A stretch of DNA of 64,000 bases from Pristiophorus japonicus (taxonomy: Eukaryota), in assembly GCF_044704955.1 (NCBI RefSeq), contig NC_091990.1:177630001-177694000 (forward strand). Direction: 5' to 3'. The position numbers and the translations under genes are program-made. Positions within the stretch are counted from its first letter, which is position 1. Each line of letters opens with the position of its first letter. Positions 4,570 to 57,302 of this stretch are shown here, one piece after another. The notes under the pieces are model-generated. The model made no database searches and was not told the DNA's origin. It saw only the letters and a list, made by a program, of their open reading frames with translations.

Positions 4570-4947
4570 CTGCAAATCCCCTGGGAGGACAGACACACCA
4601 ACATCAGTGTCCTTGCCCAGGCTAACATCCCCAGCATTGAAGCACTGACCACACTCGATCAGCTTAACTGGGCAGGCCACTTAGTTCGCATGCCAGATAG
4701 GAGACTCCCTAAGCAATTGCTCTACGCAGAACTCCTTCATGGCAAACGAGCCAAAGGTGGGCAGCGGAAACGTTATAAGGGCACCCTCAAAGCCTCCCTG
4801 GTGAAGTGTGACATCACCACTGACGCCTGGGAGACCCTGGCCGAAGACTGCCTGAGGTGGAGAAAGTGCATCCGGGAGGGCGTTGAGCTCTTCGAATCTC
4901 AACGCTGTGAGCATGAAGAGGTCAGGCGCAGGCAGTGGAAGGAGCAT
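4570..4947 (+). mobile_element. RTE-clade LINE fragment (5' half, split by the ERV)
   Basis: MPDRRLPKQLLYAELLHGKRAKGGQRKRYK is a typical RTE ORF C-terminus. The sequence resumes at 13231 and matches the uninterrupted copy at 22417-23075. Confidence 0.92.
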
Positions 4948-5409
4948 TGTCGAGGAAATATTTAGCTTAAATTAACTCAGGCGGAGACTTTCAGAACTGC
5001 ACTTCGAGAGAATTTATTTTAAAAAGCAAGATATATCTCGGAGAGCCTGCTTGGACCTTACCAAGGCAAAACTCTGTCGTACAAGCAAATTGCACTTATC
5101 TTTATACAGAAATTGAATACAGAAATAGAAAAGAATCTTATTCATTAGTCCCGCGAGTACAAAGGTCGTCTCGGGAGGTGCACACTCTATCTGTCCTTGC
5201 ATAGTTTTTCTCTGTTCACAGTCTGTTAAGCAGAATCAAAAGGAGACTCCCTTTTAATACCAGATGGTCATTTAATTGCACCTCTAAGTTTCAAGGCTAA
5301 AAAGCGTGGCTATTTTTCTAGTCTTATTATTTCTTTAAGCATAGCAAAAAACAGAATTTAACCCTTCCCTCTAAATTAAGCCAGGTGTTCATAGTTTCTC
5401 TCTTCCACA
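4948..5409 (-). repeat. ERV 3' LTR (462 bp)
   Basis: Direct repeat of 12769-13230. Minus strand starts TGTGGAAG and ends CGACA, with TATTAAAA at 5252-5259 and AATAAA at 5013-5018. Confidence 0.97.
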
Positions 5410-5420
5410 ATTCCCTCCTT
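5410..5420 (-). promoter_or_regulatory. Polypurine tract (PPT)
   Basis: Minus-strand AAGGAGGGAAT immediately precedes the 3' LTR. Confidence 0.85.
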
Positions 5421-5455
5421 GTTGATCTTTTTATTTTTTAGATCAACACAATTTC

Positions 5456-7530
5456 CTATATTCTCTTCTTGAGCAAAAGGGGGTGTATACCTTCAGGATA
5501 GGGTCGCATTTTGAGATAATCGTCTTCATCAACCTTTTCCTCTAAGCGACTTAACCTTCCTTTCATGCATACACCTTTTCTTTTTATTTCGGAGAGCAGG
5601 CCTATTACTTGACTAATTAAATTTTTTAGTTTTATCCACATTCTGCAAAGGATTATTAATAATACAAGCATAACCACACCTACGATTACTATGGGGTGTA
5701 TAGCGAGCTTCAGTACTGCTGTAGCTTTTGGGGACCATCCGGTAAACATATCCCACCAGTGGTGTACTGTCAAAGAGGTAACTTCATCTGCGATTCTCAC
5801 TAGCTGCCCCTTCTTGTAACTCATTTTGACTCTAAATTGGTGGATGTCTCTGCCTTGCTTTGACAGAGCTTCCTCAATTTTCTTGTCATTACGTATCAAA
5901 TTGTGCAGTCTGGTCAGATTAATTACAGGGGGTAAGGGTTCAATCTTGTGCATAGACAGATCATTTTCTACATTTTGCCACTGCCCAAAGGTATAAGTTC
6001 TTTTTATTTCAGGGTCATACAGGGTGTAGACTCTTCTCACGCATTTATTAATGGGGGGTTTATACAAAATTCCATCCAGATAGACAGGTTTATTTCCTGT
6101 CACACAGATCTCATTCTGTCCTATTTCCGTTATCTCAGTGTCATTTGTTAGCTTTAATTCCCATTTACATACTCCAATGGAGTGCTGCACTGAGCATGGT
6201 TCGTATATGGCGGTCTGATAGGGACATACCATTCCGAATGGCCACCTAGCACATCCCCTCTGGTGATGTGTCATATTCTTCTCATCCACCCAATCTCCTT
6301 TAAATTCTGGGTACCAGAAGTTCTGTCCAAACAGCTGGGGCATTACTTGGAACTGACACCAAATTTCTTTTCGTGTCATACTTACTATCTCTCCAGTAAC
6401 GTTACATCCTTTTGAATTACAACTGGTATATCTTTTTTTGAGGGTTAATGGTTAAATTAAGAAGCTTATCTCTTTTGTTAATTTCCAGCAACCTTTGCCA
6501 TGTGTTAGCATGGAAGGATAATATTTTCCTTTCTAACTTGGCTCTTAATAGCTGTCTGATCATTTCTTTAAACAGGCAATGGGTGTACTTGTTTATTCCC
6601 TGTTGTTCTTTCATTAGGTTCTCTATTTCCTTCTCTATCCCTTCATTCTGTTCCCAGGTCATTTCATTTAGGACGTAACCTGATATCTGTAATTGTTGTA
6701 ATCCTTCATCCCAGACATTCTGATCTTTATATCTTCCCCTACCAGTCCTCCGACGGCCTGGATTTTATTTTGTAGGGTCTCGATATCCATGGAGTTCAAT
6801 GCTCCTATTCCTGCTCCCACTCCACCTAACACAGTCTCTAATACATCCCGTTTCTTTCTTTGGGGGCTTTCTTTTTCAAAAGATACCTTAACACTGGTTG
6901 TGTGGCAAGCATCTTCTTTCTTTGGGGGATATTTAATTCGTATTGTTAGATTTAATACACCTGGGGATCTTACCACTGGGATGCAAGTGGTCAGTATCCT
7001 TTTTAGATGTCCCGGGTCCCGGTCTTCTGGGTGGCCGGATTCTTTTACTGACCATTTTACCACGAATGGGTCTCCTCCATTCACCGGGGTGTTATTCATG
7101 CACAACATCCGCTGCCCTTCTACCATACTTGTAAATGAATAACGGAGGAAGTCTTTTCTCTCGTCCGGCCCTCCTATGTACCCCCATCTCTTGTTTTTCC
7201 CTGTGCTCAGGGTACACTTCATCCACACATCGGCCTGGTATTCTATGAACAACTGATACCCTTTCCCCAATATAAACTGGAATTCCCCTCTTTCTTCCTT
7301 CATTCCACACGCCTCACATCGTGCCGTAAAATTCCCTACTTTACAACTTTGGCCTGCTGGGCATATAAAATTGCCTTGCTGCCTGCACTATTACTTCTTT
7401 CCCATACCATATTTCCCTTCCATACTCTTCCTTCTTTTAGGACTTCTTCCTCCTGTCGGGAGTTCCCTGTTGCTAAAATGATCAGTATACCTAACGTCCA
7501 TTTATAATTTTTCCAAGAGTCCCTTCCCAT
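5456..7530 (-). pseudogene. env: ERV envelope glycoprotein (premature stop at 7336-7338 and two frameshifts)
   Basis: Signal peptide MGRDSWKNYKWTLGILIILATG, furin site RKKR (6848-6859), fusion peptide DVLETVLGGVGAGIGALNS, Cys-rich ectodomain, HHWWDMFTGWSP membrane-proximal motif, TM anchor IVIVGVVMLVLLIIL, and a tail with YLKM. Confidence 0.9.
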
Positions 7531-7657
7531 CTTCCCTTTCTTGTTTGTTTCTATACCACTCTTGAAATAAGTCGTTACAATAATAACACGTCCACACGAT
7601 AGTAACAGTGATCCAAATAATAAAGGCCCAAACTGGCACACAAATGAGCTCTGACAT
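7502..7657 (-). CDS. Putative 51-aa single-pass membrane accessory protein overlapping the env start
   Basis: Open ATG ORF MSELICVPVWAFIIWITVTIVWTCYYCNDLFQEWYRNKQEREDGKGLLEKL lies between the pol stop (7746) and the env ATG (7530). It has a hydrophobic N-terminus and a charged tail. Confidence 0.5.
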   Translation of the reverse strand: MSELICVPVWAFIIWITVTIVWTCYYCNDLFQEWYRNKQEREDGKGLLEKL

Positions 7658-7745
7658 TCGTCCGTGAATTTTGGGCAATATTTTCAAGTCCAAATATTTA
7701 ATACAAGAGCAGGTACAGTTCTTCAGTGAGAAGATGGTTGTTTTC

Positions 7746-10700
7746 TTAGTCGGGCGACCGTAGTACGTCCTGGTTCAATGCCTTTTCCTTCGGCTGTAAT
7801 TCGTCGGGGAAATAATATTTACAGCGGGTCGCATGCACCCAGTTCGGGTGCTTTTCCAACTTCAAAGCGGTTCGTGTTGTGAGAATTATCTGATACGGTC
7901 CTTTTCACCTAGGAGAAAAAGATTCTTTATTTAATGTTTTTACTAACACTTGATCTCCAGGCCTGAAAGGGTGCATATTTCCTTCCGACGGGGCACCTGT
8001 GTCTGCTTTATTTGTTCATGCAGACTCCTTGCTATTTCACACATGGCCTGAGCATACTTTAGTGATTTTTCATCATTCCAAATTAATGCTATTTTTTCAT
8101 CTGTCAGTGGTGGTTTTACGCCAGTAGGCATTGGTCTTCCCAATAAGGCGTCATGTGGTGTCAAATCATTGTTTCGGTTTTTCTGGTTTCTTATTGTATA
8201 CAATACTAATGGTAAGGCTTCTGGCCACTTCAGTCCAGTCTCCTGACATACCTTGGTAAGGGTAGATTTTATTATCCCATTTACTCTTTCTACCATTCCC
8301 GAGGACTGTGGCTGATATGGTATATGTAACTTCCACTGGAACTCTAACGCTTCTGCAAGGTTTTGCACTATTTTTCCGGTGAAGTGTGTTCCCCTGTCAC
8401 TGTTGATTCCCATCGGTATCCCATATCTTGGTACTATTTCTTTAAATAGAATTTTTACTACTGTTCGGGCATCGTCTTTCCTACTGGCGTACGCTTCTAC
8501 CCACCTTGTGAACATATCTACTATGACTAATAGATACTTAAGACCTGATACTGGAGGCATGTGGACAAAGTCAATTTGCAAATTTTCAAAGGGCATACTT
8601 GGTTGGGGTAGATGATCATATCCAGCAGGTGTTTTACCTCTGTTATTTTGCTGACAAATTTGGCATGTCCTAGCAACTTTCTCAATTACTACTGTTATTC
8701 CTGGTGCATACCATTGTGCATTAATAGCATGTATCATCCCTCCTTTGCCCATGTGAGCCTGACCGTGTGCTAGGCGAGACAGGGGCAAAAATAGAGATTT
8801 AGGGCAAACAGTTCGCCCATCAGGGTGATACCAAATGTCGTTTTTTAGAAAACAACCCTGGTTTTCCCAAGTTCTTCCTTCCTGCATGTTAACTTGTTGT
8901 TGGGCTGTTTTAAGTAGTTGGATGTCAAGTACCTGTGGAGGGGAGACTGAGACTGCTTGAAGGCAGTCTGCCTGTGCCGAAGCGGCCTGTTTGGCTGCTT
9001 TGTCAGCCCTCCTATTTCCTACTGATACTTCATCCTCACCGGTTGTGTGAGCTGCACATTTGATAACGGCTACCTTACTTGGCAACTGAATGGCGTCTAA
9101 TAGATTAAGCACCAGTTGAGAGTGCTTAATATGCTTTCCACCAGAGGTGATAAAGCCTCTGTTTTTCCACAGTTGTCCAAAATCATGGACCACACTGAAT
9201 GTATATCTGGAATCAGTATAGATATTAGCAGTTTGATCTTTAGCTATTATACAAGCTCTAGTGAGGGCAAACAATTCAGCAGCCTGAGCCGAGGTTCCGG
9301 GAGGCAGGGCGAATGATTCAACAGTTTCGTGGGGATTTACAATAGCATAGCCTGCCAAAAACAAATCATCCGACGGTCTATGTGATGATCCATCCGGATA
9401 GAGAATAAGATCAGGATTGTCCATGGGCTCTGTGAGCAAATCTGGTCTTGGTAAGGTGGCTACTTCCACCGTTAACAGACAATCATGCTGGCCTGGATCC
9501 TCTACTTCTTTAGTAGGAAGAAAGGTGGCTGGGTTCACTACCGGTGCACATCGAAAGGTATAGTTAGGGTGTGACAGCAGTAATACTTCATGACCTGTTC
9601 TTCGATACGCTGTAAAGTGTTGTGTGGCAGCTGAATTCAAAAGTAATAACACAGCATGGGCTGTAATGACAGTACATGGATGATCCAAAACAATAGATAC
9701 CGACTTCTCCACCATGACCGCAGTAGCAGCTACAGCACGTAGACATGCTGGCATTCCCCTTACTACTGGAGGCAGCAAAACCGAATAATAAGCAACTGGT
9801 CTATCTCCCCCACCATGTTCTTGGGTTAGTACTGCTGTTGCAAATACTGCGGGGCTTTCGGTGTATCCTTGGGGCAGCCTGGTCCATGTGTACTGCTGCT
9901 TCTTGTGGGTCAAAACAAACAGATACTGACTTTCTTGATTTAACGGGATAGAGTAAAAAGCTGAACACATGTCTATTACAGTAAAGACAGTTGCTGTTGG
10001 TGGTATAGCAGATAGTATAATGTTGGTGTCCGGTACCACAGGGGTGATAGGACTACTATCTTATTAATAGCTCTCAAATCTTGCACAAATCTCCATTCAT
10101 TCGGCCTATTAACCTTTGGTATGGGCAGTATCGGAGTGTTACACGGGCTCTGTGTCTTTTCTGAAACTCCTTGTTCCAACAATGCAGAAATTACTGGCTC
10201 TATCCCATTTTCTGCCTCTGGAGGCAGTCTGTACTGCCTAATGCTTGGTAACACGGCGTTCTTTATCAATTGTACCCGATGGGGTACTGCAGAGTGTACT
10301 TGCCCAACATGATTCTTATGCTTTGCCCAAAGTTCATGAGATACTTGATTCAATGCCAGTGGCAGCTTAGGGCTTGGTTGTTCCGGGGGTTGCTGTTTTT
10401 CAAAAGTGGAGGCATGATTTTTACCTTTCCACTGGAGAATCCCCCTGTTGTGGGTGATAAAGTCTATCTGAACATTTTGCAGTTTTATTACTGCCCAAGG
10501 TTGCTGTTTTTCTCTTTCTATTCCTACAATCATCAGACCCATATCTTTAGGTTTCGCTGGCGGTTTTACAGCCAAGGTCAGATGGGGTGTCGAGTTCGCT
10601 TCTCTAAACCGCTGCTGCTGTAAGGGTGTCAAATCCATGGGTACCCCCAATCCTTCTGGTCCAAAATAAATGCGGGGCGTAGCTTCTACTATTTCTTCTC

Positions 10701-11343
10701 TATTTAAAAAGGATTGTACCAAACACTGGTAAGTTTCAGCTTTTTGGCGAGTGTACCAGGCTGTACAGTGAAGCTGAACTGCCTCAAAGCTTGTCAAAAT
10801 TATATCCATCAATTCTTCAGTATTAGAGTCAAATTTAGCTTTTAAGTTTTGTATAACTTCATGTATCAAGGGGGAATAGTAGTTGCCAATCAATTGCCAA
10901 CAATAGAGGGCAGCCTTTTCTTTGTTATCCTCCCTTTTCTCTTTTTTAATCCCATTAAAGAACTGATGAATATTATTTGGAGGGAGCTCCATGTACATTC
11001 CTTCCTTTGTGCAATACATTGTGGCTCCTAGTTTGCACAAAGTCTGTCTTCCCAATAAAGGGAGCGGTGTTGTTTTAGAGACTATCAAAGTCTCATCATT
11101 AACTGATTGTCCTTCAATTATCAATTTGGTAGGTTCAGATAAAAATTCTTTCATGGGGATACCGGCCACACCCATACTTAAGACGGTGGTGTTGCTTACA
11201 GATAATCCCACAGAGGATGGTACAGAAGACATAGTAGCACCGGTATCCACCAGGAACTTTACATAAGTGTCTCCTACTTTTACTACTGCCAGAGGGTTTT
11301 CTTCTATGTCTGCCGATAAGCGGAGGGCTGGCGCCTGTAACAC
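7746..11343 (-). pseudogene. pol: ERV pol: protease, 2H-phosphoesterase-like insert, RT (YxDD region deleted), RNase H, integrase; frameshifts near 10035 and 7970
   Basis: FLVDTGA and LLGRQ (protease); WRFVQDLRAIN, VIDMCSAF and TWTRLPQGY (RT); YPDGSS, SAQAAEL and YTDSRY (RNase H); HGQAH...CQIC, LQIDF, SDRG and MVERVN (integrase); GPYQIIL in the terminal frame. Confidence 0.93.
10399..10911 (-). other. 2H-phosphoesterase (CNPase-like) domain embedded in pol between protease and RT
   Basis: In-frame ~170-aa insert with LHCTA (His codon 10768-10770) and PHLTLA (His codon 10582-10584), 62 aa apart, followed by P.KDMGL. Boundaries are approximate. Confidence 0.8.
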
Positions 11344-11369
11344 TAAGCCTCCTCGGCATCCCTCTGCTG

Positions 11370-12425
11370 ATTATTCTGTGCCTGTCCTCGTCCCTTTTGC
11401 TGATTTACTGACCTGTTTTAGCCATATTTTCCTTATAGGTAAGTAGTCCCTCTCTATCCATGTTAGCCAGTACTGTAACTGTCTCTTTCCAACTTTTTCC
11501 TTGCCAGTCCAAAACCCTTATTTTGTATGTTCTTGCTTGTTGTGGCAACATACAATTTAACAAGGTTTGCACTGCCAAAGGTTCATTTTGATCCATTAGT
11601 ATTCCTGCATGCTCGTCCTAACTATTTTTCCATCTGCCTGCAAAATCTATTCTTCTGCTTTCTGCAAGCAGCGGGTGACTTCCCCTATATCTCCATGCTT
11701 TTTAGCTCCCTTTAATAAATGGTACAGGTTTGCTCAAGCCAGTTGTGAAAGGCTACTGGCTTCTTAACAGGATTAGGGGCAGCTGATATCATATCCCGAG
11801 CTTCTCCCGGTGTCCAGGGCTTTAGGACAGCCGTTGTTCTGATCATTATACGGGGGCTTGTGTCGTGGGGGTAGTGGAGGAATCGGCCTGTTTTATCCAG
11901 CTGAGCGGCCACTATGTCTATGATCTCCTGCCAATCATCCGGCTCGGTGGTTGGAAGACGGGGATATAAGCCGACAGGGGAAGCGGTCAAAACCGGGCCA
12001 CTCGGGGGGGCTGTAAGAGGGAGGGGGCTTCTCCTTACCCTCCTCCTCTTTCTTTTTATTTTTTAAAACAATTCTCCATATAATCTTTATCCCAACTGGG
12101 GTCCCCTGTCCCATTTTTGGTGGTCTGTCTCCATTCCTCAATTAAGGACAATTTAAAACTTCCTCCATATGGCCAATCCCCATCAGACCAACCGTACAAA
12201 TCGCTACTAAACGTTACCGCGTATCTGTCGTCTCCTGTTTCTTTAATTACAGTGTCCGCCGGCGAGCCGGGCGGCACAATGGGATCTCCTACCTTCTCTC
12301 GTTGCTTTACTGATTCTTTTCTCATTCTTAGGATGTACTTTCATTCTTTCAGTTGAGAGGTCGTCCTTCTTTCCTTTTCTAGGAGCTGGGCGCGAGCGCC
12401 CTGCTCGACTAGAGCCGTTTCCCAT
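11370..12425 (-). pseudogene. gag: ERV gag (frameshifted and deleted; no nucleocapsid zinc knuckle seen)
   Basis: MGNGSS myristoylation-type start, WPYGGSF matrix motif, PPSY late domain and a capsid-like KPWTP...PNP segment, spread over several frames. Confidence 0.82.
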
Positions 12426-12743
12426 TCTTCCGGGTGCAACGTCTCGCGATCTTTTCTGAAATGAGAGTTAGAACAATCCTACAAAATATACAATAATTTA
12501 CAAAGCGCTCACCGGTGTTCTCTTTTCTGCTCAGCTCGGGGTCTCCTTTTGCCTTTTTGTTATTTTAGCTTCTTAGCGGTAGCTACCTTATGCCTCACCC
12601 TCTCGGGGATCTCGGCGGCCCATCCCCCTTTCAGCTAGGACGGCCTAGGCACCTTCCTCCTTTCAGCTAGGAAGGTCCTTAAAATTCCTCTTTTCTCTTT
12701 AAAAGTTAAATTTGGTTCTTTTGGATCTCGTTTTTTTTTTAGA

Positions 12744-12763
12744 GATCCTGCCGGACTACGCCA
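12744..12763 (-). promoter_or_regulatory. Primer-binding site complementary to the tRNA-Ser 3' end
   Basis: Minus strand TGGCGTAGTCCGGCAGGAT. The vertebrate tRNA-Ser(AGA/TGA) 3' end is ATCCTGCCGACTACGCCA, a match apart from one extra base. Confidence 0.85.
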
Positions 12764-12768
12764 GAATC

Positions 12769-13230
12769 TGTCGAGGAAATATTTAGCTTAAATTAACTCA
12801 GGCGGAGACTTTCAGAACTGCACTTCGAGAGAATTTATTTTAAAAAGCAAGATATATCTCGGAGAGCCTGCTTGGACCTTACCAAGGCAAAACTCTGTCG
12901 TACAAGCAAATTGCACTTATCTTTATACAGAAATTGAATACAGAAATAGAAAAGAATCTTATTCATTAGTCCCGCGAGTACAAAGGTCGTCTCGGGAGGT
13001 GCACACTCTATCTGTCCTTGCATAGTTTTTCTCTGTTCACAGTCTGATAAGCAGAATCAAAAGGAGACTCCCTTTTAATACCAGATGGTCATTTAATTGC
13101 ACCTCTAAGTTTCAAGGCTAAAAAGCGTGGCTATTTTTCTAGTCTTATTATTTCTTTAAGCATAGCAAAAAACAGAATTTAACCCTTCCCTCTAAATTAA
13201 GCCAGGTGTTCATAGTTTCTCTCTTCCACA
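12769..13230 (-). repeat. ERV 5' LTR (462 bp)
   Basis: Repeat of 4948-5409; one mismatch seen by eye (CTGATAAG vs CTGTTAAG). Confidence 0.97.
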
Positions 13231-13388
13231 AGCATGCGGTAAATCAGTCCCACCAACCTCCCCCCCTTCCCCTGACGAATGTCTGTCCCACCTGTGACAG
13301 GGTGGCTCTCGTGTTGGACTGTTCAGCCACCAAAGAACTCACTTTAGTAGCCTTCCTCCATTCCGAGGGACTGCCTATGATGATAATG
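13231..13388 (+). mobile_element. RTE LINE 3' end (continuation after the ERV)
   Basis: CPTCDR zinc-finger remnant and a GGACTGCCTATGATGAT tail matching the other RTE copies. Confidence 0.9.
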
Positions 13389-22224: not shown

Positions 22225-23640
22225 GGCCCAGATTTTGCGGTCAGCGGCGAAAGAACAACACTCGCCGTTTACAGCTTATAGTTGGTATGACTGCACTGGG
22301 TTGTGGGTGAGTTTAAGGGGTGGTTAGTGAGATGTGGATGCAACAATGTAGTTGGAGAGAGAGGGATGGGTGGAGATGCAAGGTACGCTGGTGTGAGTAA
22401 GGATGTGCAGGAGTAGCTCATGGTCTACAGGGCTGTAGTAATACCCACCCTCTTGTATGGATCAGATGCATGGACACTGTACAGAAGACACCTCAAGTCG
22501 CTGAAGATATATCACCAACGATGTCGCCGCAAGATCCTGCAAATTCCCTGGGAGGACAGGCGCACCAACATCAGTGTCCTTGCCCAGGCTAACATCCCCA
22601 GCATTGAAGCACTGACCACACTCAATTAGCTTCTCTGGACAGGCCACATAGTTCGCATGCCAGACACGAGACTCCCTAAACAATTGCTCTATGCGGAGCT
22701 CCTTCATGGCAAACGAGCCAAAGGTGGGCAGCAGAAACGTAACAAGGGCACCCTCAAAGTCTCCCTGGTGAAGTGCGACATCACCACTGACACCTGGGAG
22801 TCTCTGACCGAAGACTTCCCTAGGTGGGGAAAGTGCATCCGGGAGGGCATTGAGCTCTTCGAATCTCAACGCCGCGAGCGAGAAGAGGTCAGGCGCAGGC
22901 AGCGGAAGGAGCTTGTGGCAAATTGGTCCCACCCACCCCTTCCCCCGACAAAAGTCTGTCCCACCTGTGACAGGGTCTGTGGCTCCCCTATTGGACTGTT
23001 CAGCCACCAAAGAACTCACTTTAGAAGTGGAAGCAAGTCTTCTTCGATTCAGAGAACTGCCTATGATGATGATGATGCAGGAGTAGGGTAGGGAAGACAG
23101 AGTGATGGGGATGTGATGATAGGAACAGGAGGATGAAGCGGAGTGTGACTTTGTACTAACGTTTCGTGATCTACTGAGATCATTGAAAGGTTTGCGCCAC
23201 TGCACCCAGGTCCTCCTGACGACAGCCCTGCTTGTGACCTCCTCTGCAATGTGCAACCAGGCTGTGTTGGTCTTCTGGGGATGTCTCTTCTGCCCATAGG
23301 AAGGGACGAGGACCTCCTTGTATGCTATGAATCCCTCCATAAGCATATAGAGGGAGTCATGGGAGAACTTGGATGCAGCCCTACACCTCTGTGCAGTGAT
23401 TGTCAGTATTTGCAGCACCTCAGTGCTGTAGACCACTGACAGCACAACTGTAAAATCAATGTGGACAAGGTCCCTTTAAGGAAATTGGCTGATGACCTGT
23501 CATCAAATTACATCACCAGAACTATTTCCTCTAATTGCACTGGGAAACACGCTGGGCAGGCTTTAAAAGCCCCATCAACGTAAGTGCCTTTTAGGCAGTG
23601 GTATGGAACCAGCAGCGGGGTGCAATGTGCCAAGATAGGA
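22225..23640 (-). mobile_element. Harbinger-derived Myb/SANT remnant interrupted by an RTE
   Basis: ASKFSHDSLYMLMEG...AWLHIAEEVTSRAVVRRTWVQWRKPFNDLSR is a Myb/SANT-like motif. Confidence 0.7.
22417..23075 (+). mobile_element. RTE LINE 3' fragment with TSD (TGCAGGAGTAG)
   Basis: VYRAVVIPTLLYGS..W, LPKQLLYAEL, CPTCDRVC...GLFSHQRTH, (GAT)n tail, and a flanking direct repeat. Confidence 0.92.
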
Positions 23641-28068: not shown

Positions 28069-31000
28069 ACATAAGAACATAAGAACATCAGAATTAGGAA
28101 CAGGTGTAGGCCATCTAGCCCCTCGAGCCTGCTCCGCCATTCAATAAGATCATGGCTGATTTGGCCGTGGACTCAGCTCCACTTACCCGCCCTCTCCCCG
28201 TAACCCTTAATTCCCTTATTGGTTAAAAATCTATCTATCTTTGACTTGAAAACATTCAATGAGCCAGCCTCAACTGCTTCCTTGGGCAGAGAATTCCAGA
28301 GATTCACAACCCTCTGGGAGAAGAAATTCCTTCTCAACTCGGTTTTAAATTGGCTACCCGTATGTTGAGGCTGTGCCCCCTAGTTTTAGTCTCCCCTACC
28401 AGTGGAAACAACCTCTCTGCCTCTATCTTGTCTATCCCTTTTATGATTTTAAATGTTTCTATAAGATCAGCCCTCATCCTTCTGAACTCCAACGAGTAAA
28501 GACCCAGTCTACTCAATCTATCATCATAAGGTAACCCCCTCATCTCCGGAATCAGCCGAGTGAATCGTCTCTGTACCCCCTCCAAAGCCAGTACATCCTT
28601 CCTTAAGTAAGGTGACCAAAACTGCACGCAGTACTCCAGGTGCGGCCTTACCAATACCCTATGCAGTTGCAGCAGGACCTCCCTGCTTTTGTACTCCATC
28701 CCTCTCGCAATGAAGGCCAACATTCCATTCGCCTTTCTGATTACCTGCTGCACCTGCAAACTAACTTTTTGGGATTCATACACAAGGACCATCAGCCGGT
28801 CCAGGCAGCGGGCGGTCGAGGGGGTCGTTCAACCTGACTGCCTGCCTCTCTTCCGCTCTTACATCCGGTCCAGGGTGTCCTTGGAGATGGAGCACGCGGG
28901 GTCCACCGGTACGCTCGCGGCCTTCCGTGAGAGGTGGGCACCGGAGGGACTGGAGTGCATCATCACGCCCGGCAACCAAATTTTAATTTGATTTTACCTT
29001 TTAAAGTTTAATTTGTTTTAATTGCCGGTGCTTTTAGTGTCCCCTTCCCTTTTATAGGGGGCACTGGAAAAATCTGATTTTAGCGCCCAAAAAAAAACCA
29101 AAAAAAAATGAAAAACACAAAAAAAAACCAAAAAAAGGAAAAAAGGGCCTTGTAAATGTCTGGTGTGTCACCCAGGTCGGGTGGAACGGTTTAATGTTTT
29201 ATGTTTTTGCAGGTGAACTCCAAAAAGAGTTTCATACACAAGGACCCCCAGGTCCCTCTGCACCTCAGCATGTTGTAATTTCTCCCCATTCAAATAATAT
29301 TCCCTTTTACTGTTTTTTTTCCAAGGTGGATGACCTCACACTTTCCGACATCGTATTCCATCTGCCAAACCTTAGCCCATTCGCTTAACCTATCTAAATC
29401 TCTTTGCAGCCTCTCTGTGTCCTCTACACAACCTGCTTTCCCACTAATCTTAGTGTCATCTGCAAATTTTGTTACACTACACTCTGTCCCCTTTTCCAGG
29501 TCATCTATGTATATTGTAAACATTTGTGGTCCCAGCACCGATTCCTGTGGCACACCACTAACCACCGATTTCCAACCCGAAAAGGACCATTTATCCCGAC
29601 TCTCTGCTTTCTGTTCGCCAGCCAATTCTCGATCCATGCTAATACATTTCCTCTGACGCCGCGTACTCTATCTTCTGCAGTAACCTTTTGTGTGGCACCT
29701 TATCGAATGCCTTTTGGAAATCTAAATACAGCACATCCATCGGTACACCTCTATCCACCATGCTCATTATATCCTCAAAGAATTCCAGTAAATTAGTTAA
29801 ACATGATTTCCCCCTCATGAATCCATGCTGCGTCTGCTTGATTGCACTATTCCTATCTAGATGTCCCGCTATTTCTTCCTTAATGATAGTTTCAAGCATT
29901 TTCCCCACTACAGATGTTAAACTAACCGGCCTATAGTTACCTGCCTTTTGTCTGCCCTCTTTTTTAAACAGAGGCGTTACATTAGCTGCTTTCCAATCCG
30001 CTGGTACCGCCCCAGTGTCCAGATAATTTTGGTAGATTATAACGAATGCATCTGCTATAACTTCCGCCATCTCTTTTAATACCCTGGGATGCATTTCATC
30101 AGGACCAGGGGACTTGTCTACCTTGAGTCCCATTAGCCTGTCCAGCACTACCTCCCTAGTGATAGTGATTATCTCAAGGTCCTCCCTTCCCACATTCCTG
30201 TGACCAGCAATTTTTGGCATGGTTTTTGTGTCTTCCACTGTGAAGACCGAAGCAAAATAATTGTTTAAGATCTCAGCCATTTCCACATTTCCCATTATTA
30301 AATCCCCCTTCTCATCTTCTAAGGGACCAACATTTACTTTAGTCACTCTTTTCCGTTTTATATATCGGTAAAAGCTTTTATTATCTGTTTTTATGTTTTG
30401 CGCAAGTTTACCTTCGTAATCTATCTTTCTTTTCTTTATTGCTTTTTTAGTCATTCTTTGCTGTTGTTTAAAATTTTCCCAATCCTCTAGTTTCCCACTA
30501 ATCTTGGCCACCTTATACGCATTGGTCTTTGATTTGATACTCTCCTTTATTTCCTTGGTTATCCATGGCTGGTTATCCCTTCTCTTGCCGCCCTTCTTTT
30601 TCACTGGAATATATTTTTGTTGCGCACTATGAAAGAGCTCCTTAAAAGTCCTCCACTGTTCCTCAATTGTGCCACCGTTTAGTCTTTGTTTCCAGTCTAC
30701 TTTAGCCAACTCTGCCCTCATCCCACTGTAGTCCCCTTTGTTTAAGCATAGTACGCTTGTTTCTGACACAACTTCCTCACCCTCAATCTGTATTACAAAT
30801 TCAACCATACTGTGATCACTCATTCTGAGAGGATCTTTTACTAGGAGATCGTTTATTTTTCCTGTCTCATTACACAGGACCAGATCTAAGATGGCTTGCT
30901 CCCTTGTAGGTTCTGTTACATACTGTTCTAAGAAACAATCCCGTATGCATTCTGTGAATTCCTCCTCCAGGCTACCCCGTGCGATTTGAGTTGACCAATC

Positions 31001-31752
31001 GATATGTCGGTTAAAATCCCCCATGACTACTGCCGTTCCTTTTTCACATGCCTCCATTATTCCCTTGATTATGGTCCGTCCCACCGTGAAGTTATTATTT
31101 GGGGGCCTATAAACTATGCCCACCAGTGACTTTTTGCCCTTACTATCTCTAATCTCCATCCACAATGATTCAACAGTTTGTTCATTGGAGCCAATATCGT
31201 CTCTCACGACTGCCCTGATATCATCCTTTATTAACAGAGCTACCCCACCTCCTTTCCCTTCTTGTCTATCTTTCCGAATCGTCAGATACCCCTGTATGTT
31301 TAATTCCCAGTCTTGGCCACCCTGCAACCACATTTCTGTAATGGCCACCAAATCATACCCATTTGTAATGATTTGTGCTGTCAACTCATTTACTTTATTT
31401 CGAATGCCGCATGCATTTAGGTAGAGTGTTTTAATCCTCGTTTTTAAACCATGATTTTTAGTTTTGACCCCTCCTGCAGCCCCTTTATATTCAGTGGCCC
31501 TTTTTGTTTTTTGCCTTGGGTTTCTCTGCCCTCCACTTTTACTCATCTCCTTTCTGTCTTTTGCTTTTGTCTCCTTTTTGTTTCCCTCTGTCTCCCTGCA
31601 TTGGTTCCCATCCCCCTGCCATATTAATTTAACTCCTCCCCAACAGCACTAGCAAACATTCCCCCTAGGGCATTGGTTCCGGTCCTGCCCAGGTGCAGAC
31701 CATCCGGTTTGTACTGGTCCCACCTCCCCCAGAACCTGTTCCAATGCCCCAA
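28069..31752 (-). mobile_element. CR1 LINE: ORF1 C-terminus (SGNH-esterase DGLH motif), near-complete ORF2 (APE endonuclease + RT, one frameshift) and 3' tail
   Basis: ORF 29639-31546 has YLNA, AITEMW, GDFN, LDLV, SDH and RT motifs; FADD lies in 29290-29637; KPDGLHLG is at about 31690; (CATAAGAA)n tail at 28069-28087. Confidence 0.96.
28791..29230 (+). mobile_element. 5'-truncated Tx1/L1-like LINE 3' end inserted in CR1 ORF2, 16-bp TSD
   Basis: TSD TTCATACACAAGGACC at 28775-28790 and 29231-29246. ORF end SRQRAVEG...CLPLFRSYIRSRVSLE.EHA....AFRERWAPEG..C resembles a Tx1-type ORF2 C-terminus. A-rich tract at about 29089-29124. Confidence 0.72.
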
Positions 31753-33634: not shown

Positions 33635-36600
33635 GGGTCAAAATTCAGTTGCTAACGCCTGCTGTAACACTGGTGTTAGGTGTTAAATAGGAGTTAGGCG
33701 GTTGGGAGTGGCGCTCGATGCTGTTCATGCCGGACGCAAAATTCGGTGGTAATTTTTTAAGGGCGTTAAAACGTAATGTACTGCCAGCTAATGCCATGGA
33801 AATCAGTACGTGTGCAACACCTCCTTGGTGCTCTTCACGCCACATTCAGTTTTGCTGCCTCACTTAATGGCTGGAGTCCATGACGCCTGAAAAAGTTGGA
33901 CTGCAAAAGACAAAGAAACTAATTGGGGCGTTATTTAAACAGAGTTGCAGCCAGGGCTCAGAGGTCTCGGTCAGTGCTGCATTTGATGCTCAGACAGTAG
34001 GGTGTTGGCATCGTACTACTGTTGACTCATCAGATTGACTACTAATATCTGGGACACATTGGCTTCCATATTGGATAAATTTGAAATCTCCATTTCGCTG
34101 TGACCTGTGCCAAGTGATGGGGGCAGTGATGGCACACCACGTCGTCCTGCGGCGCTGACTAGAAAGGCACTGGCTTCAGAGACAGCTTAGGCCCCAGACG
34201 GTGGGGCAGGAGGCCGTACACACACAGGGTTTGTCGCGCGCATACTCTTATCTTGAGATGTCCGATGAGCCGTGCTTACGAAGGCTGAGGTTCCGCTAGG
34301 AGGTGGTCACGGAACTTTGCAACCTATTGTGGACATACCTGGCAGCTAACATTGGCACTAGGACCTCACTGTCAGTGGCAGTGAAATCACAGTAGCATGA
34401 TCTTCTATGCTACCGGCACCTTCCAATCTCCTGTAGCCGATATATGCAACATCTCGTGGCTTGCAGTACATTGCTGCATTCGCCAGGTGACCAATACTCT
34501 CTACGTCAAACGATTGGACTACATCAAGTTCAGCATAGAAACATAGAAAATAGGTGCAGTAGTAGGTCATTCGGCCCTTCGAGCTGATCATTCACCTCAG
34601 TACCCCTTTCCTGCTTTCTCTCCATATCCCTTGATCCCTTTAGCCATATCTAACTCCCTCTTGAATATATTCAATGAACTGGCATCAACAACTCTCTGCG
34701 GTGGGGAAGTCCACAGATTAACAACTCTCTGAGTGAAGAAGTTTCTCCTCATCTCAGTCCTAAATGGCTTACCCCTTATCCTTAGACTGTGACCCCTGGT
34801 TCTGGACTTCCCAAACATCGGGAACATTCTTCCTGCATCTAACCTGTCCAGTGCCGTCAGAATTTTATAAGTTTCTATGAAATCCCCTCTCATCCTTCTA
34901 AACTCCAGTGAATAAAGGCCCAGTCAATCCAGTCTCTCCTTTTATGTCAGTAGCTATCCCTGGAATTAGTCTGGTGATCCTTCGCTGCACTCCCTCAATA
35001 GCAAGAACGTCCTTCCTCAGATTAGGAGACCAAAACTGAACACAATGTTCCAGATGAGGCCTCACCAAGGCCCTGTACAACTGCAGTAAGACCTCCCTGC
35101 TCCTGTACTCAAAACCCCTAGCTATGAAGGCCAACATACCATTTGCCTTCTTCACCATCTGCTGTACCTGCATGCCAACTTTCAATGACTGATGTACCAT
35201 GACACCCAGGTCTCGTTGCACCTCCCCTTTTCCTAATCTGCCGCCATTCAGATAATATTCTGCCTTTGTGTTTTTGCCCCCAAAGTGGATAACCTCACAT
35301 TTATCCACATTATACTGCATCTGCCATGCATTTGCCCACTCACCTAACCTGTCCAAGTCACCCTGCAGCCTCATAGCATCCTCCTCACAGCTCACACCGC
35401 CACCCAGTTTAGTGTCATCTGCAAAATTGGAGATATTACACTCAATTCCTTCATCCAAATCATTAATGTATATTGTAAATAGCTGGGGTCCCAACACTGA
35501 GCCCTGCGGCACCCCACTAGTCACTGCCTGCCATTCTGAAAAGGACCCGTTTATCCCAAATCGCTGCTTCCTCTCTGCCAACCAGTTCTCTATCCACGTC
35601 AGTACATTACCCCCGATACCATGTGCTTTAATTTTGCACACCAATCTCTTATGTGGGACCTTGTCAAAAGCATGTCAAGGGAAGGCCAGGATGAACACAC
35701 CCGTGGCTTTACCAGGAGAGCAGGCTTCCCCAGGTTCAAGGAACCATTGATTGTACGCATGTGGCATTGACAGCCCCGCCCCACTATGGAGAGCTCTTTC
35801 GGAATCGCAAGGGATTCCACCCCCTCAACGTACAGCTGGTCTGCGATCGCAAGCAGATAATCCTCACTGTCAATGCCCGATACCCTGACAGCTGCCGCGA
35901 TGCCTTCATGCTGCGGGAGACCACTGTGCCACAACTCATTAAATCACCGCATGAAGGCCGTGACTGGCTCCTGGGCGACAAAGGTTATGGTATGGCCCCC
36001 TGGCATGACACCCCTCCACAATCTCACCGACCCTGCCGAGCAGCGCTACAACAACAGCCATACCATGACCCGGGCCATTATCGAGCAAACTATCGGGGTT
36101 CTGAAGCAGCATTTCCGCTGCCTTGACCGGTCTGGAGGGACATTCCAGTACTCCATGATCACTGTTGCCTGCTGCATGCTGCACAACCTGGCCATTATGA
36201 GGGGCCAGCCATTACCACCAGGGATGGATGATCCACCTCAGGAGGAGGACGAGGATGAGGAGGAAGACGAGGAGCCTCACCGATGGAGGAGGCAGCCTGA
36301 CACTGCTGGGAGGGCTGCTTGTCAGAGACTCATCGCTCGTTGATCCCAATGAGTCTTGACATGCTGAATGGCCAGCCGATACACGTGGGCATCAACTCAA
36401 CACATCTCTACCCACCCTGTAGCCCTCCATCTTAAATAATGAGTGCCTCATCATGTGAACAATCCCAACTTGGATTATTGCAAACATAAATCATGTTTGC
36501 TGAAAACAAGCACAAGACAACAACTTCATCCCCAACACATCAACATACCCACAAAACCCCTTCAAACATTCTCATAGAGATCCAAGTGCACCTATTGACA

Positions 36601-43394: not shown

Positions 43395-44013
43395 GTAAGT
43401 AGCTGTTTAAAAAGCAGTGCCATCTGGCTCTGCTTTCTGTAGCTAAAGATCGTGTGTACATTAAAGAATGTGGACTAACTCTAGCCAAGCTCTTAATGTT
43501 CCAGTAGAAACACCAGCAAACTCATCCTGAGGGCAATACTTATCCCATCTACACTTGGGATATTTTGTTGGAGAGTGTGGGAATCTCCTGGACAAATGAA
43601 ATAAGGAAAATCAGTATAAATATTTAAAAGGAATATGAGTGCTGTCGTTTTCGCTTTAGCTTGTTCATTGTTTAAAAAAACTAGTCACATTCCATAACTC
43701 ATCCTTCTTTTCATTTGTCATCTCATCACCATCAGATTACAAAATAAAAATCACAGCTAGCAGCCATGACAGATCCCAAACTTCAACAAAACATTATTTC
43801 GTGACCGCAAAAAGGCTCCTGTACGACACACAACCCAGCCACAATTTTCCAAATAATCCTGAGCATACTGAAAGTGAATTTCTCAGAGCCCTGCGTCTGC
43901 AACTAGATTATAAAAAGCCAGATGTATAACATAGGCCTAAGTTTACACGACACTAAGATACGAGTGGTTTTAATGCTACTTGCCCAGCAGAGATCCGACA
44001 GTAGGTAGTCAAA

Positions 44014-47000
44014 TGTCATGTATGTAACACCACTGTATTACTGTACACACTTGACCTTGATGCACACCTTGACCACAAGGGGTGCACTTGTGGGAGACTG
44101 CCCCATACCTGGGCACCCAGGTATATAAAGGGAGGTCCCACGAAGGGTTGGGTTGTCTTAGTGCTGTAAAGAAAGAGTTAAGGTCTGTGTGTGACCTTGT
44201 CCCCAGGATGTGCCTCGTGTGATTTCATACTATAGAGTAAGGACTTTACAGTGGCGACGAGAAACAGGAATTCACAACCCACGAGAATGGCCACTGGTAG
44301 CACAGAAGAACGGTACTGTGTTGGGGAAGATTGGGACGATTTTGTTGAGAGGCTTCAGCAGAGTTTTGTTACGAAGGAATGGCTGGGGGATGCGGCGGCT
44401 GACAATCGCAGGGCTCACCTCTTGACCAGCTGTGGACCAAAGACTTACGCACTCATAAAAGACTTACTAGCACCCGAAAAGCCGGCGGACAAAACCTTTG
44501 AGGAGCACAGCAAGTTAATCGGGGAGCACCTCAAACCGGCAAGCAGCGTACACATGGCCCAACACAGATTCTACACCCACAGACGTCGTGAAGGACAGAG
44601 CATACCGGACTTTGTAGTGGACATTCAGTGTTTGGCCAGCCTCTGTAAGTTCACAGACGCCTGTAGGGGGGGAGATGCTAAGGGACTTCTTTATCGAGGG
44701 CATCGGTCATGCGGAAATTTTCCGTAAATTAATTGAGACCAAGGATTTGACCTTGGAAGCGGCGGCGTTGATGGCTCAAACTTTCATGGCGGGGGAGGAA
44801 GAGATGAAAACGATATACGCGCGCAATTCTGCCCCCAATACTGTGATGGATCAGGGAGTCAATATTATTAGTGCGACTCAGAGCCCCGCAAGCAGGCTGG
44901 GGCAGTCCAACACTCCCCAGGCAGCAATAGACCCCAGAGTAGTTTTCCACAGAGACAATGGCAGACTGAACGGACATTTACGCCATCACAGTGGATAATG
45001 CGGCCTGGGATGGGGCCATTGTCACCCAATAATAGGGTACTTAAGAGTAGTCAAAGGGACATTCAGAGCGGAATGCCTGGCCATAGTCCTTTCATTCCCA
45101 ACAATGGAAACTTTAACTCCTGCTGGAGGTGTTGGGGTAAACACTCAGCCAGATCTTGCAGATTCCAACTGTTTGTCTGCAGAAACTGCAATCTCAGTGG
45201 CCATTTAGCTCAAATGTGCAGGAAGACTAATATATGAGGCGAATGAACCAGAAGAGGGTTCTTTAAGGCAGGATGACTTTTGGGGCAAATCGATGGACGC
45301 CAAGGTTCAGCGGGTCCATGTGGCGAATATCATCAGAACACCACCAATGATGATGAGGGTTTTATTAAACGGCATCCCAGTATGCATGGAGCTGGACACG
45401 GGGGCCAGCAAGTCACTCATGGGCATTCAGCAATTTGAGAAACTATGGCCCATCAAAGCCAGTAGACCCAAACTAGAACACATTGAGACACAATTACGGA
45501 CGTACACTAAAGAGATTATTCCGGTGCTAGGCAGTGCAATGTTGGCTGTCACACACAATGGGTTAGTGAATCGGCTGCCGCTCTGGATTGTCCCGGGCAA
45601 TGGTCCCGCACTGTTGGAAAGGAGCTGGTTAGCCGAGATGAATTGGAAATGGGGGGATGTTCATGCAATGTCATCTGTGGAGCGAAGTTCGTGCTCATAA
45701 GTCCTACAACAATTTGATTCACTATTTCAACCTGGCGTCGGGACTTTCAAAGGCACTAAAGTAGTGATACACATCACCCCGGACGCCAGGCCGGTGCACC
45801 GCAAAGACAGAGCTGTGCCTTATGTGATGCGTGAAAAAATTGGCTGTTGAGAGAGGGCATCATCTTGCCTGTTGAATTCAGCGACTGGGCGAGTCCCATC
45901 GTTCCCGTCCTAAAAGCGGATGGCTCTGTCAGGATCTGTGGCGACTACAAGACCACCATCAATCGGGTGTCCCTACAAGATCAGTACCCGCTTCCGAGAG
46001 CGGAGGACCTTTTCGCCACGCTGGCAGGCGGCAAGCTGTTCACCAAGTTGGACCTCACTTCAGCCTATATGACACAGGAACTGGCCGACGAATCTAAACT
46101 ACTGACCACCATCACCACGCACAAGTCGCTGTACAAGGGACTGTTCGCTGAAACAGGTGTCCGTTTGGCATTCGGTCAGCGGCCGCGATTTTTCAAAGAA
46201 ACATGGAAATCCTGCTCAAATCCATACCTGGAACAATCGTATTCCAGGACGACATCCTCATCATGGGTCGAGACACCGAGGAACACCTCCACAACCTGGA
46301 GGAGGTGCTACGCCGACTGGACCGGATAGGCCTGCGACTCAAGAATTCTAAATGTGTGTTTTTAGCTCCTGAGGTTGAGTTTCTGGGCAGGAGGGTTGAT
46401 GCAGATGGGATTCGGCCCACCGAATCCAAAACAGAGGTGATTCGACGAGCACCCAGGCCACATCAGAGTTGCGTTCATTCCTGGGACTGTTGAACTATTT
46501 TGGGAACTTTCTTGAGCACGTTGCTGGAGCCGCTACACATGCTCCTGCGAAAGGGGTGTGATTGGTTTTGGGGGGACTGTCAGGAACGGGCTTTCGATCG
46601 GGCACGGAACGTACTTTGTTCTAACAAATTGTTGATCCTGTACGACCCCTGTAAAAAAATTGGTTCTGACATGTGATGCATCGTCCTATGGGGTTGGGTG
46701 CGTGTTGCAGCAGGGCAATGCTGAGGGTCAACTGCAACCTGTGGCTTATGCCTCCAGGTCGCTCTCTCAAGCTGAACGGGGATATAGCATGGTTGAGAAA
46801 GAAGCGCTTGCATGTGTCTATGGTGTGAAAAAAATGCATCAGTACATCTTTGGTCGGAAATTTGAATTAGAGACAGACCACAAGCCGTTAACGTCCCTGT
46901 TGTCAGACAGCAAGGCTGTCAACACCAATGCATCAGCTCGCATACAGCGATGGACCCTCACGCTGGCTGCTTATGACTACATAATTCGACACCGGCCCGG

Positions 47001-48695
47001 CACCGAAAATTGCGCAGACGCACTCAGCAGGCTTCCACTGACCACCACTGAGGGGGCAGCGGGGCAATGCGCTGTCGACGCCTTTGACAGCGCAGGCTCC
47101 CCCATCACAGCCCGCAGATCAAAATCTGGACAAACAGAGATCCCCTCCTATCCCTGATTAAGAAATGTGTTCTGACTGGGGATTGGGCGCCCGCACATGG
47201 AGCATGCCCTGAGGAGGTCAGACCCTTCCACAGACGGATGGATGAGCTCTCCATCCAGGCCGACTGCCTACTATGGGGCAGCCAGGTAGTTATGCCCCAG
47301 AAGGGAAGGGAGGCATTCATCAAGGAACTCCACAGCAAGCACCCAGGCATTGTGATGATGAAGGCCATTGCCCGGTCACACATTTGGTGGCCTGGAATTG
47401 ATTCAGACCTGGAACATTGTGTTCGCAAGTGCACGATGTGTGCCCAGCTGGGTAATGGCCCCAGGGAGGCCCCACTCAGCCCGTGGCCCTGGCCCACCAG
47501 GCCATGGTCACGCATTCATGTTGACTACGCAGGCCCATTCATGGGAAAGATGTTTCTCATCGTGGTGGACGCGTACTCGAAATGGATCGAGTGCATCATT
47601 TTGAATTCATGCACGGCATCCATCACCGTGGAAAGCCTACGTGCGATCTTCGCAACCCATGGCTTGCCCGACATCCTGGTTAGTGATAATGGCCCATGTT
47701 TCACAAGCTACGAATTCCGGGAGTTCATGTCGGGTAATGGCATCAACCACGTCAGGACAGCGCCGTTCAAGCCGGCCTCCAATGGCCAGGCGGAACGTGC
47801 GGTCCAAATCATTAAGCAAGGTATGCTCAGGATCCAAGGAACCTCTCTGCAATGCCGCCGATCGCGCCTCCTGCTGGCCTATAGATCCCGCCCGCACTTG
47901 CTCACGGGCTCCCGCCCGCAGAGCTACTAATGAAACGGACACTCAAAACTCGGTTGTCCCTCATTCACCCAGTCCTGTCCGACATTGTTGAGGGCAAGCG
48001 CCAGTCCCAAAACGAGTACCATGACCGCAATTCAAGGGGGAGGTTTATAGAAATAAATGATCCCGTATTCGTCCTCAATCACGCCATGGGGCCCAAATGG
48101 CTTGAGGGTACTGTAATTGACAAAGAGGGGAATAGGGTCATTGTGGTAAAACTCAACAATGGTCAGATATGCCGCCAGCATCTGGACCAAGTAAAAAAAA
48201 AGTTCAGCACCGACATGGAGGAACCTGAAGAAGACCACGAGTTGGAACTCACACGACCGCCAGTGAATGACCAACAAGAGCAATCAGCAGAATGTACAGT
48301 CCCTGCGGCCAGCCTGGACAGGCCGGAATCACCACAGGTGACAGACACTCAAGTTAGTGTCCAACAACCAGAGCCCCAACCGCGGTGCTCCACGAGGGAG
48401 CGTAGACCACCTGAAAGACTAAACCTATGATCCCAATAAGACTTTGGGGGGGAGGTGATGTCATGTATGTAACACCACTGTATTAGTGTATATACTTGAC
48501 CTTGATGCACACCATGACCACAAGGGGTGCACTTGTGGGAGACTGCCCCATACCTGCGCACCCAGGTATATAAAGGGAGGTCCCACGCAGGGTTGGGTTG
48601 TCTTAGTGCTGTAAATAAAGAGTAATGGTCTGTGTGTGACCTTGTCCCCAGGATGTGCCTCCTGTGATTTCATACTATAGAGTAAGGACTTTACA
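44014..48695 (+). mobile_element. Full-length Ty3/Gypsy LTR retrotransposon (degenerate) in dioxygenase intron 4
   Basis: 237-bp LTRs at 44014-44250 and 48459-48695 (about 10 mismatches by eye), TSD TCAAA, PBS TGGCGACGAG, G-rich PPT. Gag CCHC knuckles, ELDTGA protease, FQDD RT, RNase H, and IN (HVDYAGP, SDNG, AERAV). Confidence 0.96.
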
Positions 48696-50772: not shown

Positions 50773-51205
50773 AGGTACTGTTCGCATGCCAAACACGAGA
50801 ATCCTAAAGCAAGTGCTCTACTCGGAACTCCTTCATGGCAAACGAGCCAAAGGTGGGCAGAGGAAACTTTACGAGGACACCCTCAAAGCCTCCCTGATAA
50901 AGTGCAACATCCCCACTGACACCTGGGAGTCCCTGACCAAAGACCGCCCTCAGTGGAGGAAGTGCATCCGGGGAGGGCGCCGAGCACCTCGAGTCTCATC
51001 GCCGAGAGCATGCAGAAACCAAGCGCAGGCAGCGGAAAGAGCGTGCGGCAAACCTGTCCCACCCACCCTTTCCCTCAACGACTATCTGTCCCACCTGTGA
51101 CAGGGACTGTGGTTCTCGTATTGGACTGTTGAGCCATCTAAGGACTCATTTTTAGAGTGGAAACAAGTCTTTCTCGATTCCGAGGGATTGCCAATGATGA
51201 TGATG
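50773..51205 (+). mobile_element. RTE LINE 3' fragment with a long (~45-bp) TSD
   Basis: RMPNTRILKQVLYSELLHGKRAKGGQRK; (GAT)n tail; flanks 50728-50772 and 51206-51250 are imperfect direct repeats. Confidence 0.9.
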
Positions 51206-55500: not shown

Positions 55501-57302
55501 ATAAATGCGAATGCATTGGCCCGCATACAGAGGTGGGCACTCACGTTAGCAGCCTATGACTTCACAATTCGGCACAGACCGGGCACTGAAAACTGTGCCG
55601 ATGCACTCAGCAGGCTCCCACTAGCCACCACTAAGGGGGCAACTGAGCATGATGCTGAGATGGTCATGGCTGTTGAAGCTTTCGAAAGCGAAGACTCACC
55701 TGTGACAGCCCGTCAGATTAAAGACTGGACAAATAAAGACCCGCTACTGTCTTTAGTTAAGAAATGTGTCCTGAATGGGGACTGGGCAGCCAGGTACGGG
55801 GCATGCCCTGAGGAATTTAAACCGTTTCATAGGCGCAAGTGTGAACTCTCGATTCAGGCCGATTGCCTACTGTGGAGAAACCAGGTAGTGATGCCCCAGA
55901 TGGGCAGAGAGGTGTTTATCAGAGAACTTCACAATTAGCACCCAGGCATTGTCATGATGAAGGCAATTGCCAGGTCACATGTTTGGTGGCCAGGGATAGA
56001 TGCAGACCTGGAACTTTGTGTTCGCAGCTGCAACACATGTGCTCAGCTGGGCAACGCACCCAGGGAAGCCCCCCATAGCCCCTGGTCCTGGCCCGCCTTG
56101 CCATGGTCATGCATCCATGTGGACTACGCAGGTCCTTTCATGGGAAAAATGTTTTTGGTTGTAGTAGATGCCTACTCCAAATGGATTGAGTGTGCCATTT
56201 TAAATTCAAGCACATCCTCTGCCACGGTAGAAAGTCTACGGGCAATGTTCACCGCCCATGGTCTACTGGATGTCTTGGTCAACAATAATGGCCCGTGCTT
56301 CACAAGCACTGAATTCCAGGACTTCATGGCAGGCAATGGAATCAACCATGTCAGAACGGCACCGTTCAAGCCAGCCTCAAATGGCCAGGCAGAACGAGCA
56401 GTGCAGATAATCAAACGGGATGCTCAGAATACAAGGGGGTTCCCTACAAAGCCACTTATCACGCCTCCTGTTGGCCTACAGATCCTGACCACACTCGCTC
56501 ACAGGAGTTCCAGCCACAGAGCTGCTCATGAAAAGGACGCTTAAAACCCGGTTATCCCTTATACACCTCACCATGAAAGAAATTGTTGAGAGCAGGCATC
56601 AGTCACAATGTGACTACCATGACAGGAATGCGAGGGCGCGATGTACTGATGTCAATGACCCTGTTTTTGTCCTTAATTACGCTGCAGGGCCCAGATGGCT
56701 TGCAGGCACTGTGATTGCCAAAGAGGGGAATAGGGTTTTGGTAGTTACACTTACCAATGGACAAATCTGCCGCAAACACGTGTGTCAAACTAAAAGGAGG
56801 TTCAGCAATCCCATAGAAGAAGCAGAGGAAAAACACGATGCAGAGTTCACTCCACCACAGGTGACCGAACACTGGAACCAAGTGGAGGAGAGCCCAGTCA
56901 CTGTGGGTAGTCCGGACAGGCCTGAGGCACCACAAACAGCAGACACTCAGGCCAGCGCCCAACAACCGGAGCCCCAACTCAGGCGCTCTACAATGGAGCG
57001 TAAACCACCAGAGAGACTTAACCTGTGATCCCAATTCGACTTTGGCCGGGAGGTTATGTCATGTATTCAACTATCATTGTAACCCATGTATAAGCTGACC
57101 TAAGCTGTACACCTTAGAACATTGACCACAAGGGGGTGAACTTGTGGGAGACACTCCTAACCTGGAATTTCAGGTATAAAAGGGGAAGCTCTAACCACCT
57201 TCATCACTTCAGTGCTGGCTAATAAAGGTTACTGGTCACAGAGTGACCTTCTCTCAAGTATGGGCCTCGTGTGCATTTATACTGTATAGTAAGGACCTAT
57301 CA
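52583..57302 (+). mobile_element. Full-length Ty3/Gypsy LTR retrotransposon (degenerate), same family as 44014
   Basis: LTRs 52583-52807 and 57057-57302, TSD AGGTT (52578-52582, 57303-57307), and gag-PR-RT-RH-IN fragments. Confidence 0.95.

Follow-up and report, generated by a model that had tools for sequence, protein, structure and literature searches.

The 64,000-nucleotide window analyzed here (Pristiophorus japonicus, contig NC_091990.1, positions 177,630,001 to 177,694,000; all coordinates below are those of the window) contains a provirus at 4948-13230 on the minus strand, the strand of all its genes. We consider it probable (about 0.68) that it is a member of a multi-copy shark endogenous retrovirus (ERV) family, inserted recently and now defective, whose class I (epsilon-like) gag-pol is combined with an F-type envelope (Env) gene, env cassettes having been exchanged between ERV classes. 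This reading draws on the anatomy of the element, the class of its pol, the membership of its env in a wider family, the fold of two homologs, and the discordance between pol and env.

The env gene does not follow the gamma-type layout. From a putative start (MGRDSW, 7530), a signal peptide and surface subunit (SU; 6848-7530, 682 nt, ~227 codons) run to a furin site, RKKR (6859-6848), and a fusion peptide begins at 6847, opening a transmembrane subunit (TM; 5459-6847, 1390 nt, ~463 codons) whose last codon lies at 5459. Along the TM are found, in order, the fusion peptide, a heptad region, a Cys-rich beta core, a second heptad, the HHWW..GWSP motif, the anchor (5698-5636), and a ~60-aa tail, with HHWWDMFTGWSP at 5764-5729. 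The original prediction, made from the letters alone, had placed the early cleavage site, the long TM, the fusion peptide, the Cys-rich ectodomain and the anchor in the same positions, and had noted the absence of a gamma-type immunosuppressive domain (ISD); a scan of env in all three minus-strand frames found no [LM]QNRxxLD, QNxxxLD, or CX6CC. The TM also exceeds the ~180-230 aa of a gamma-type Env (178-226 aa in 6 of 9 gamma-type reference envs with a cleavage site found). The reading frame is now broken near 7385 in SU and near 6725 and 6440 in TM, leaving pieces in four frames (7683-7339, 7387-6671, 6764-6420, and 6451-5459). Three natural relatives (P0001, P0002, and the horn shark protein P0004, whose SU is 36% identical) each cover parts of this stretch in one uninterrupted protein, which assigns the breaks to this provirus copy or to its assembly.

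Fold was assessed on models, of moderate confidence, of two intact natural homologs rather than of the broken window gene. These models matched the F proteins of respiratory syncytial virus and Newcastle disease virus (Foldseek E ~2e-6), in structural alignments spanning an SU strand (~residue 195-199) through the TM at 5-16% identity, and they show an N-terminal beta-sandwich in SU together with a long SU strand forming part of the F core. In BFVD, the best structural match was a 928-aa viral protein (A0A384ZVF2, E 3e-12), followed at rank 2 by the Env of walleye epidermal hyperplasia virus 1 (WEHV1; E 3.6e-8), above baculovirus and paramyxovirus F, while the Env of walleye dermal sarcoma virus (WDSV) matched at 3.6e-4. 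The sequence likewise displays the class Ib (F-type) arrangement, in which a furin site precedes a fusion peptide and the fusion subunit is long. The modeled env fold is thus F-type (class Ib), like that of paramyxo- and pneumovirus F and foamy Env, and the comparison with foamy Env and paramyxovirus F suggested in the original prediction returned both. Furin site, fusion peptide, long fusion subunit, and an SU strand within the TM core are all shared with foamy Env, paramyxo- and pneumovirus F, and lokiretrovirus Env; foamy viruses differ in that the SU of the window family is small, with an N-terminal beta-sandwich instead of the inserted foamy receptor-binding domain, and in that the window pol is not spuma-like. 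F-like Envs of foamy and lokiretroviruses, as well as env swapping, are described in passages of earlier work (PMC11468914, PMC7947760), one of which assigns orthoretrovirus Env to class Ia (PMC11468914). Within a literature search of limited coverage, we found no paper giving an F fold to an Ovex1-type or epsilon Env.

Could env instead encode a class III fusogen (gB- or chuvirus-like), or the locus be an assembly chimera? Atlas features on a 331-aa piece alone did return Monjiviricetes_fusion at 0.95, but the whole TM gives the F clan, and gB, gp64, and vesicular stomatitis virus G are absent from the matches listed in the PDB fold searches. Against a chimera, gag, pol, and env are enclosed by near-identical long terminal repeats (LTRs) and a target-site duplication (TSD), and in 4 of 4 runs there are related contigs over env as well as over pol, although none among those listed spans both genes. 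We regard this pair of explanations as highly improbable and already largely refuted.

By sequence comparison, pol is class I and epsilon-like, outside the WDSV/WEHV clade, as the original prediction had proposed for its class. The best PDB matches were reverse transcriptase (RT)-RNase H (RH) structures of murine leukemia virus (MLV) and xenotropic MLV-related virus (E 1e-68), and the best 120 of 299 matches in the pol search included WEHV1 pol (40% identity) and many proteins with an MLV-type integrase C-terminal domain. Integrase (IN) identity was 41-44% to WDSV/WEHV-like, 38-44% to gamma, 28-33% to foamy, and 31% to snakehead retrovirus (SnRV)-like sequences, and RT was ~49% identical to WDSV/WEHV-like RT; the reference retrovirus genomes were taken from IMG/VR and their labels, including that of SnRV (L110), were inferred by us. 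In trees of 19 references and 21 relatives' proteins, or subsets of 16-19 rows, with RT placed via its sister P0128, the RT, RH, and IN regions grouped with gamma and epsilon viruses (support 80-93), and IN joined epsilon-like rows (92/95) outside the WDSV/WEHV clade (100/100). Seven of ten approximately unbiased (AU) tests rejected a class III grouping at p<0.05 (six on IN or RT, the seventh on RH), the three without rejection being window+SnRV+foamy on RT (0.149), window+SnRV on RH (0.286), and window+Ovex1-like on IN (0.069). The position outside the WDSV/WEHV clade and the lack of accessory open reading frames (ORFs) argue against membership of the genus Epsilonretrovirus, and the class I placement, in trees built without lokiretrovirus sequences, argues against a lokiretrovirus, whose RT would be sister to all other retroviruses.

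The env gene belongs to a family found across vertebrates. Its C-terminal piece had 98 matches at E<=0.001 among 1.84 billion representatives, so that the env reading is not due to chance, and of 19 long homologs, 14 had a TM of 401-449 aa, four a shorter one, and one was not cut. Twenty matches were looked up, and those named came from horn shark, basking shark, bichir, five frogs, a caecilian, two turtles, four birds, koala, and marmoset. The chicken protein P0054 (E 2e-7) has the 873-aa length of Ovex1 ORF3 and shares the TM motifs in alignment. In the TM tree (32 rows), the window env, sawshark, P0003, and horn shark formed one clade (100/99), and the Ovex1 group was separate (100/100), with deeper branches lacking resolution; identity was 51% to the horn-shark env, 19% to the basking-shark env, and 17% to Ovex1. 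These sequence data suggest that the window env represents an old shark clade within a vertebrate-wide family, and point to an old association. The likeness to Ovex1 ORF3, GGLTR11, and TERV extends to a homologous TM of ~440 aa that has the fusion-peptide and HHWW..GWSP motifs in common and likewise lacks ISD and CX6CC; the differences, beyond the 17% identity of the TM core and the separate clade, are that Ovex1 pol lies outside class I and that Ovex1 SU is 430 aa long and has no signal peptide. The available text of the Ovex1 paper gave no fold and doubted that ORF3 was an envelope (PMC2717909). Three homologs are long open frames (P0032 of marmoset, 601 aa; P0012 of koala, 603 aa; P0054 of galliform birds), which we consider candidates for either co-opted fusogens or young ERVs.

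When pol and env are compared separately, as the original prediction had advised, they are discordant, with their nearest relatives inverted. The WDSV-like virus with 44% pol identity has an env giving no match, whereas an ERV3/ERV-L-type element (L120), only ~28% identical in pol and integrase and rejected as a sister group, carries an env homologous over 234 aa (25% identity, E 6e-20); this env is 99% identical to koala P0012 and gives the same F-type model. A second relative with a known backbone, the Ovex1-like L121, gave only a weak pairwise env match (E 0.07). Because of this inversion, an env exchange between class I and class III is likely on sequence grounds, three backbones being too few to tell its direction or date.

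A history without any swap, in which an F-type Env was ancestral to epsilon-like (or all) retroviruses, was retained in the present element as well as in WDSV/WEHV, SnRV, ERV3, Ovex1, and foamy viruses, and gave way to a gamma-type Env as a later replacement in most class I lineages, appears unlikely, though several observations fit it. Both WEHV1 and WDSV Env are among the structural matches above, WDSV-like and SnRV-like envs have long TMs, the family ectodomain profile scored 10.5 bits on the SnRV-like TM against a maximum of 5.6 in 300 shuffles, and the window env has its own deep shark clade. Exogenous epsilon Envs are described in parts of two reports as lacking gamma hallmarks (bioRxiv 2021.11.23.469661; PMC9967133), so that the premise in the original prediction of ~200-aa TMs with ISD and CX6CC holds for gamma but not for true epsilon viruses; with long epsilon TMs, an epsilon-like pol beside a long F-type TM is therefore not anomalous by itself. 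Without a swap, however, env would have been preserved as well as integrase when class I is compared with ERV3 (25% vs. 28%) and yet have become unrecognizable in a WDSV-like virus with a 44% identical pol (6 of 300 shuffles as good; hhalign probability 2.5%), and one of the same sources argues for a gamma-type Env in the epsilon ancestor (PMC9967133). WDSV/WEHV have the closest named pol, a long non-gamma TM, a structurally matching Env, and a 2H domain, but differ from the window in having no significant Env sequence likeness (for WDSV-like env), a cyclin and accessory ORFs, a longer Env tail, and their 2H domain in that tail rather than between protease (PR) and RT. SnRV shares a weakly homologous long TM and a related 2H-like insert, but its pol is ~28-38% identical, a sister position is rejected on both IN and RT, and its insert lies between RH and IN.

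A strict version of the exchange put forward in the original prediction, in which a class I gag-pol fairly recently took its env from a class III (ERV-S/Ovex1) virus, seems very unlikely. The family does include Ovex1 ORF3 and an ERV3-borne env, a basking-shark protein has this env fused to gag-like sequence that, by eye, looks like that of L120, and the TSD is 5 bp; yet the window env is far closer to the horn-shark env than to Ovex1 or basking shark, and a close class III donor was not found. Homology of the env to Ovex1 and ERV3-type envs stands, but this env is not diagnostic of class III, the family having been tied in 2009 to class I GGLTR11 and to TERV (PMC2717909). Conversely, HERV-S and XtERV-S carry class I envs according to passages in two studies (PMC4724089, PMC8278194), and "ERV-S-like env" is therefore a poor label. 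The primer-binding site (PBS), which had been cited as consistent with a class III-like env, cannot testify about env because it travels with the 5′ backbone.

Under the older exchange that we favor, the parent-virus Env would have been cut by furin at RKKR, and the cut would have freed a fusion peptide rich in glycine in front of a long heptad repeat. The SU strand would have remained threaded through the Cys-rich TM core, an arrangement seen in paramyxovirus F2/F1 and foamy Env. Such a protein would presumably have formed a trimer with fusion activity, the N-terminal beta-sandwich of SU being its likely receptor-binding module. Because this env family is common to ERV3-type and Ovex1-type backbones, recombination would have carried env cassettes across the class I/class III divide on one or more occasions in the distant past. 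Deleted copies may also have spread by complementation, as the related protein P0127 hints (see below).

More tentatively, the F-type Env may be a widespread and possibly ancestral retroviral Env, uniting the envelopes of epsilonretroviruses, SnRV, Ovex1, and ERV3, traded between classes I and III, falling outside the gamma/beta Env scheme, and still present in hosts from sharks to marmoset and koala in the form of long open frames. How retroviral env originated is debated, and current schemes assign orthoretrovirus Envs to class Ia without classifying epsilon Envs, while surveys of fish and amphibian Envs miss this family because their baits are gamma/beta. With an F-type Env in a class I ERV and the structural link to WEHV Env, the choice between an ancestral F-type Env and repeated swapping becomes testable. 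The swapping of envs is in itself common and unsurprising; the broader point, for which our literature searches gave no earlier report, is that orthoretrovirus-like ERVs have an F-type Env. A probable fusogen fold can also be given to Ovex1 ORF3 and to the long ORFs of marmoset and koala, and their co-option becomes a plausible topic.

The provirus is bounded by a 5′ LTR (12769-13230, TGT...ACA) and a 3′ LTR (4948-5409), each 462 bp and differing at one position, and by the 5-bp TSD AGCAT (4943-4947 and 13231-13235) in an RTE-like long interspersed nuclear element (LINE); contigs from other, uninterrupted LINE copies join both flanks (about 4945 to 13262). The single LTR mismatch and the TSD indicate a young insertion. 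The PBS (12746-12763) begins with TGG, 5 nt inward of the 5′ LTR, and is presumably tRNA-Ser-like; no tRNA gene was found in the window. A purine-rich tract (5410-5440) adjoins the 3′ LTR. In each of 4 runs (of 12 listed), related contigs reach 28-30 of 30 bins along the element, which probably indicates a multi-copy family, the depth not equating to copy number. The closest named proteins are from P. japonicus (78-93% identical). There is no room for an accessory ORF between LTR and gag or after env, and no cyclin.

Gag (11400-12340) lies in several frames with weak capsid likeness to WDSV-like gag (BLASTP, 12/41 identical, E 0.012), no CCHC zinc knuckle found, and no informative Pfam match. 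Class I elements typically, though not strictly, have such a knuckle and a TSD of 4 bp, the usual length in ERV1, according to part of one source (PMC4299795); here, the TSD is 5 bp, and no CCHC was seen in the broken gag. The 5-bp TSD accompanies a class I integrase. Downstream are an aspartyl protease (10981-11300; Pfam RVP E 2.9e-9; DTG at 11253-11239) and a 2H-phosphoesterase-like insert between PR and RT (10471-10845; HxT motifs at 10773-10759 and 10587-10573), which has no Pfam or PDB sequence match and is 23-26% identical to the pol inserts of salmon swim bladder sarcoma virus-like (L065) and SnRV-like viruses, both motifs being aligned. RT and connection (9500-10380) are interrupted by a frame break near 10050 and, near 9845, by an internal deletion of ~175 codons, which removes YxDD and leaves residues ~178-341 of sister P0128 without counterpart. 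The deletion is common to P0127, which suggests from sequence either a non-autonomous subfamily or that P0127 is the same locus. MLV/epsilon-like RNase H (8970-9420; Pfam E 4e-22) and integrase (7750-8800; HHCC, D-D-E, the C-terminal part with its GP motif in another frame) follow. With its env frameshifts and an RT lacking YxDD, this copy is defective and not autonomous.

2H domains were already known in fish retroviruses (PMC9503650), and related domains occur at three sites: PR-RT (L065), RH-IN (L110), and the Env tail (L002). L120 (1-6894), filed as a Bacteroidales metagenome-assembled genome, is a vertebrate ERV3-type element and thus host contamination in a bacterial record; several pol matches named Plesiomonas or Cetobacterium, among those listed, look similar. 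Elsewhere in the window are related Gypsy-like LTR elements (44013-48695, 52583-57302, 59555-61667, and 1800-2860; one inverted), CR1 LINE copies (1-1820, 29642-31648, and 34694-35674), and RTE-like copies near 22465-23475 and 50780-51184.
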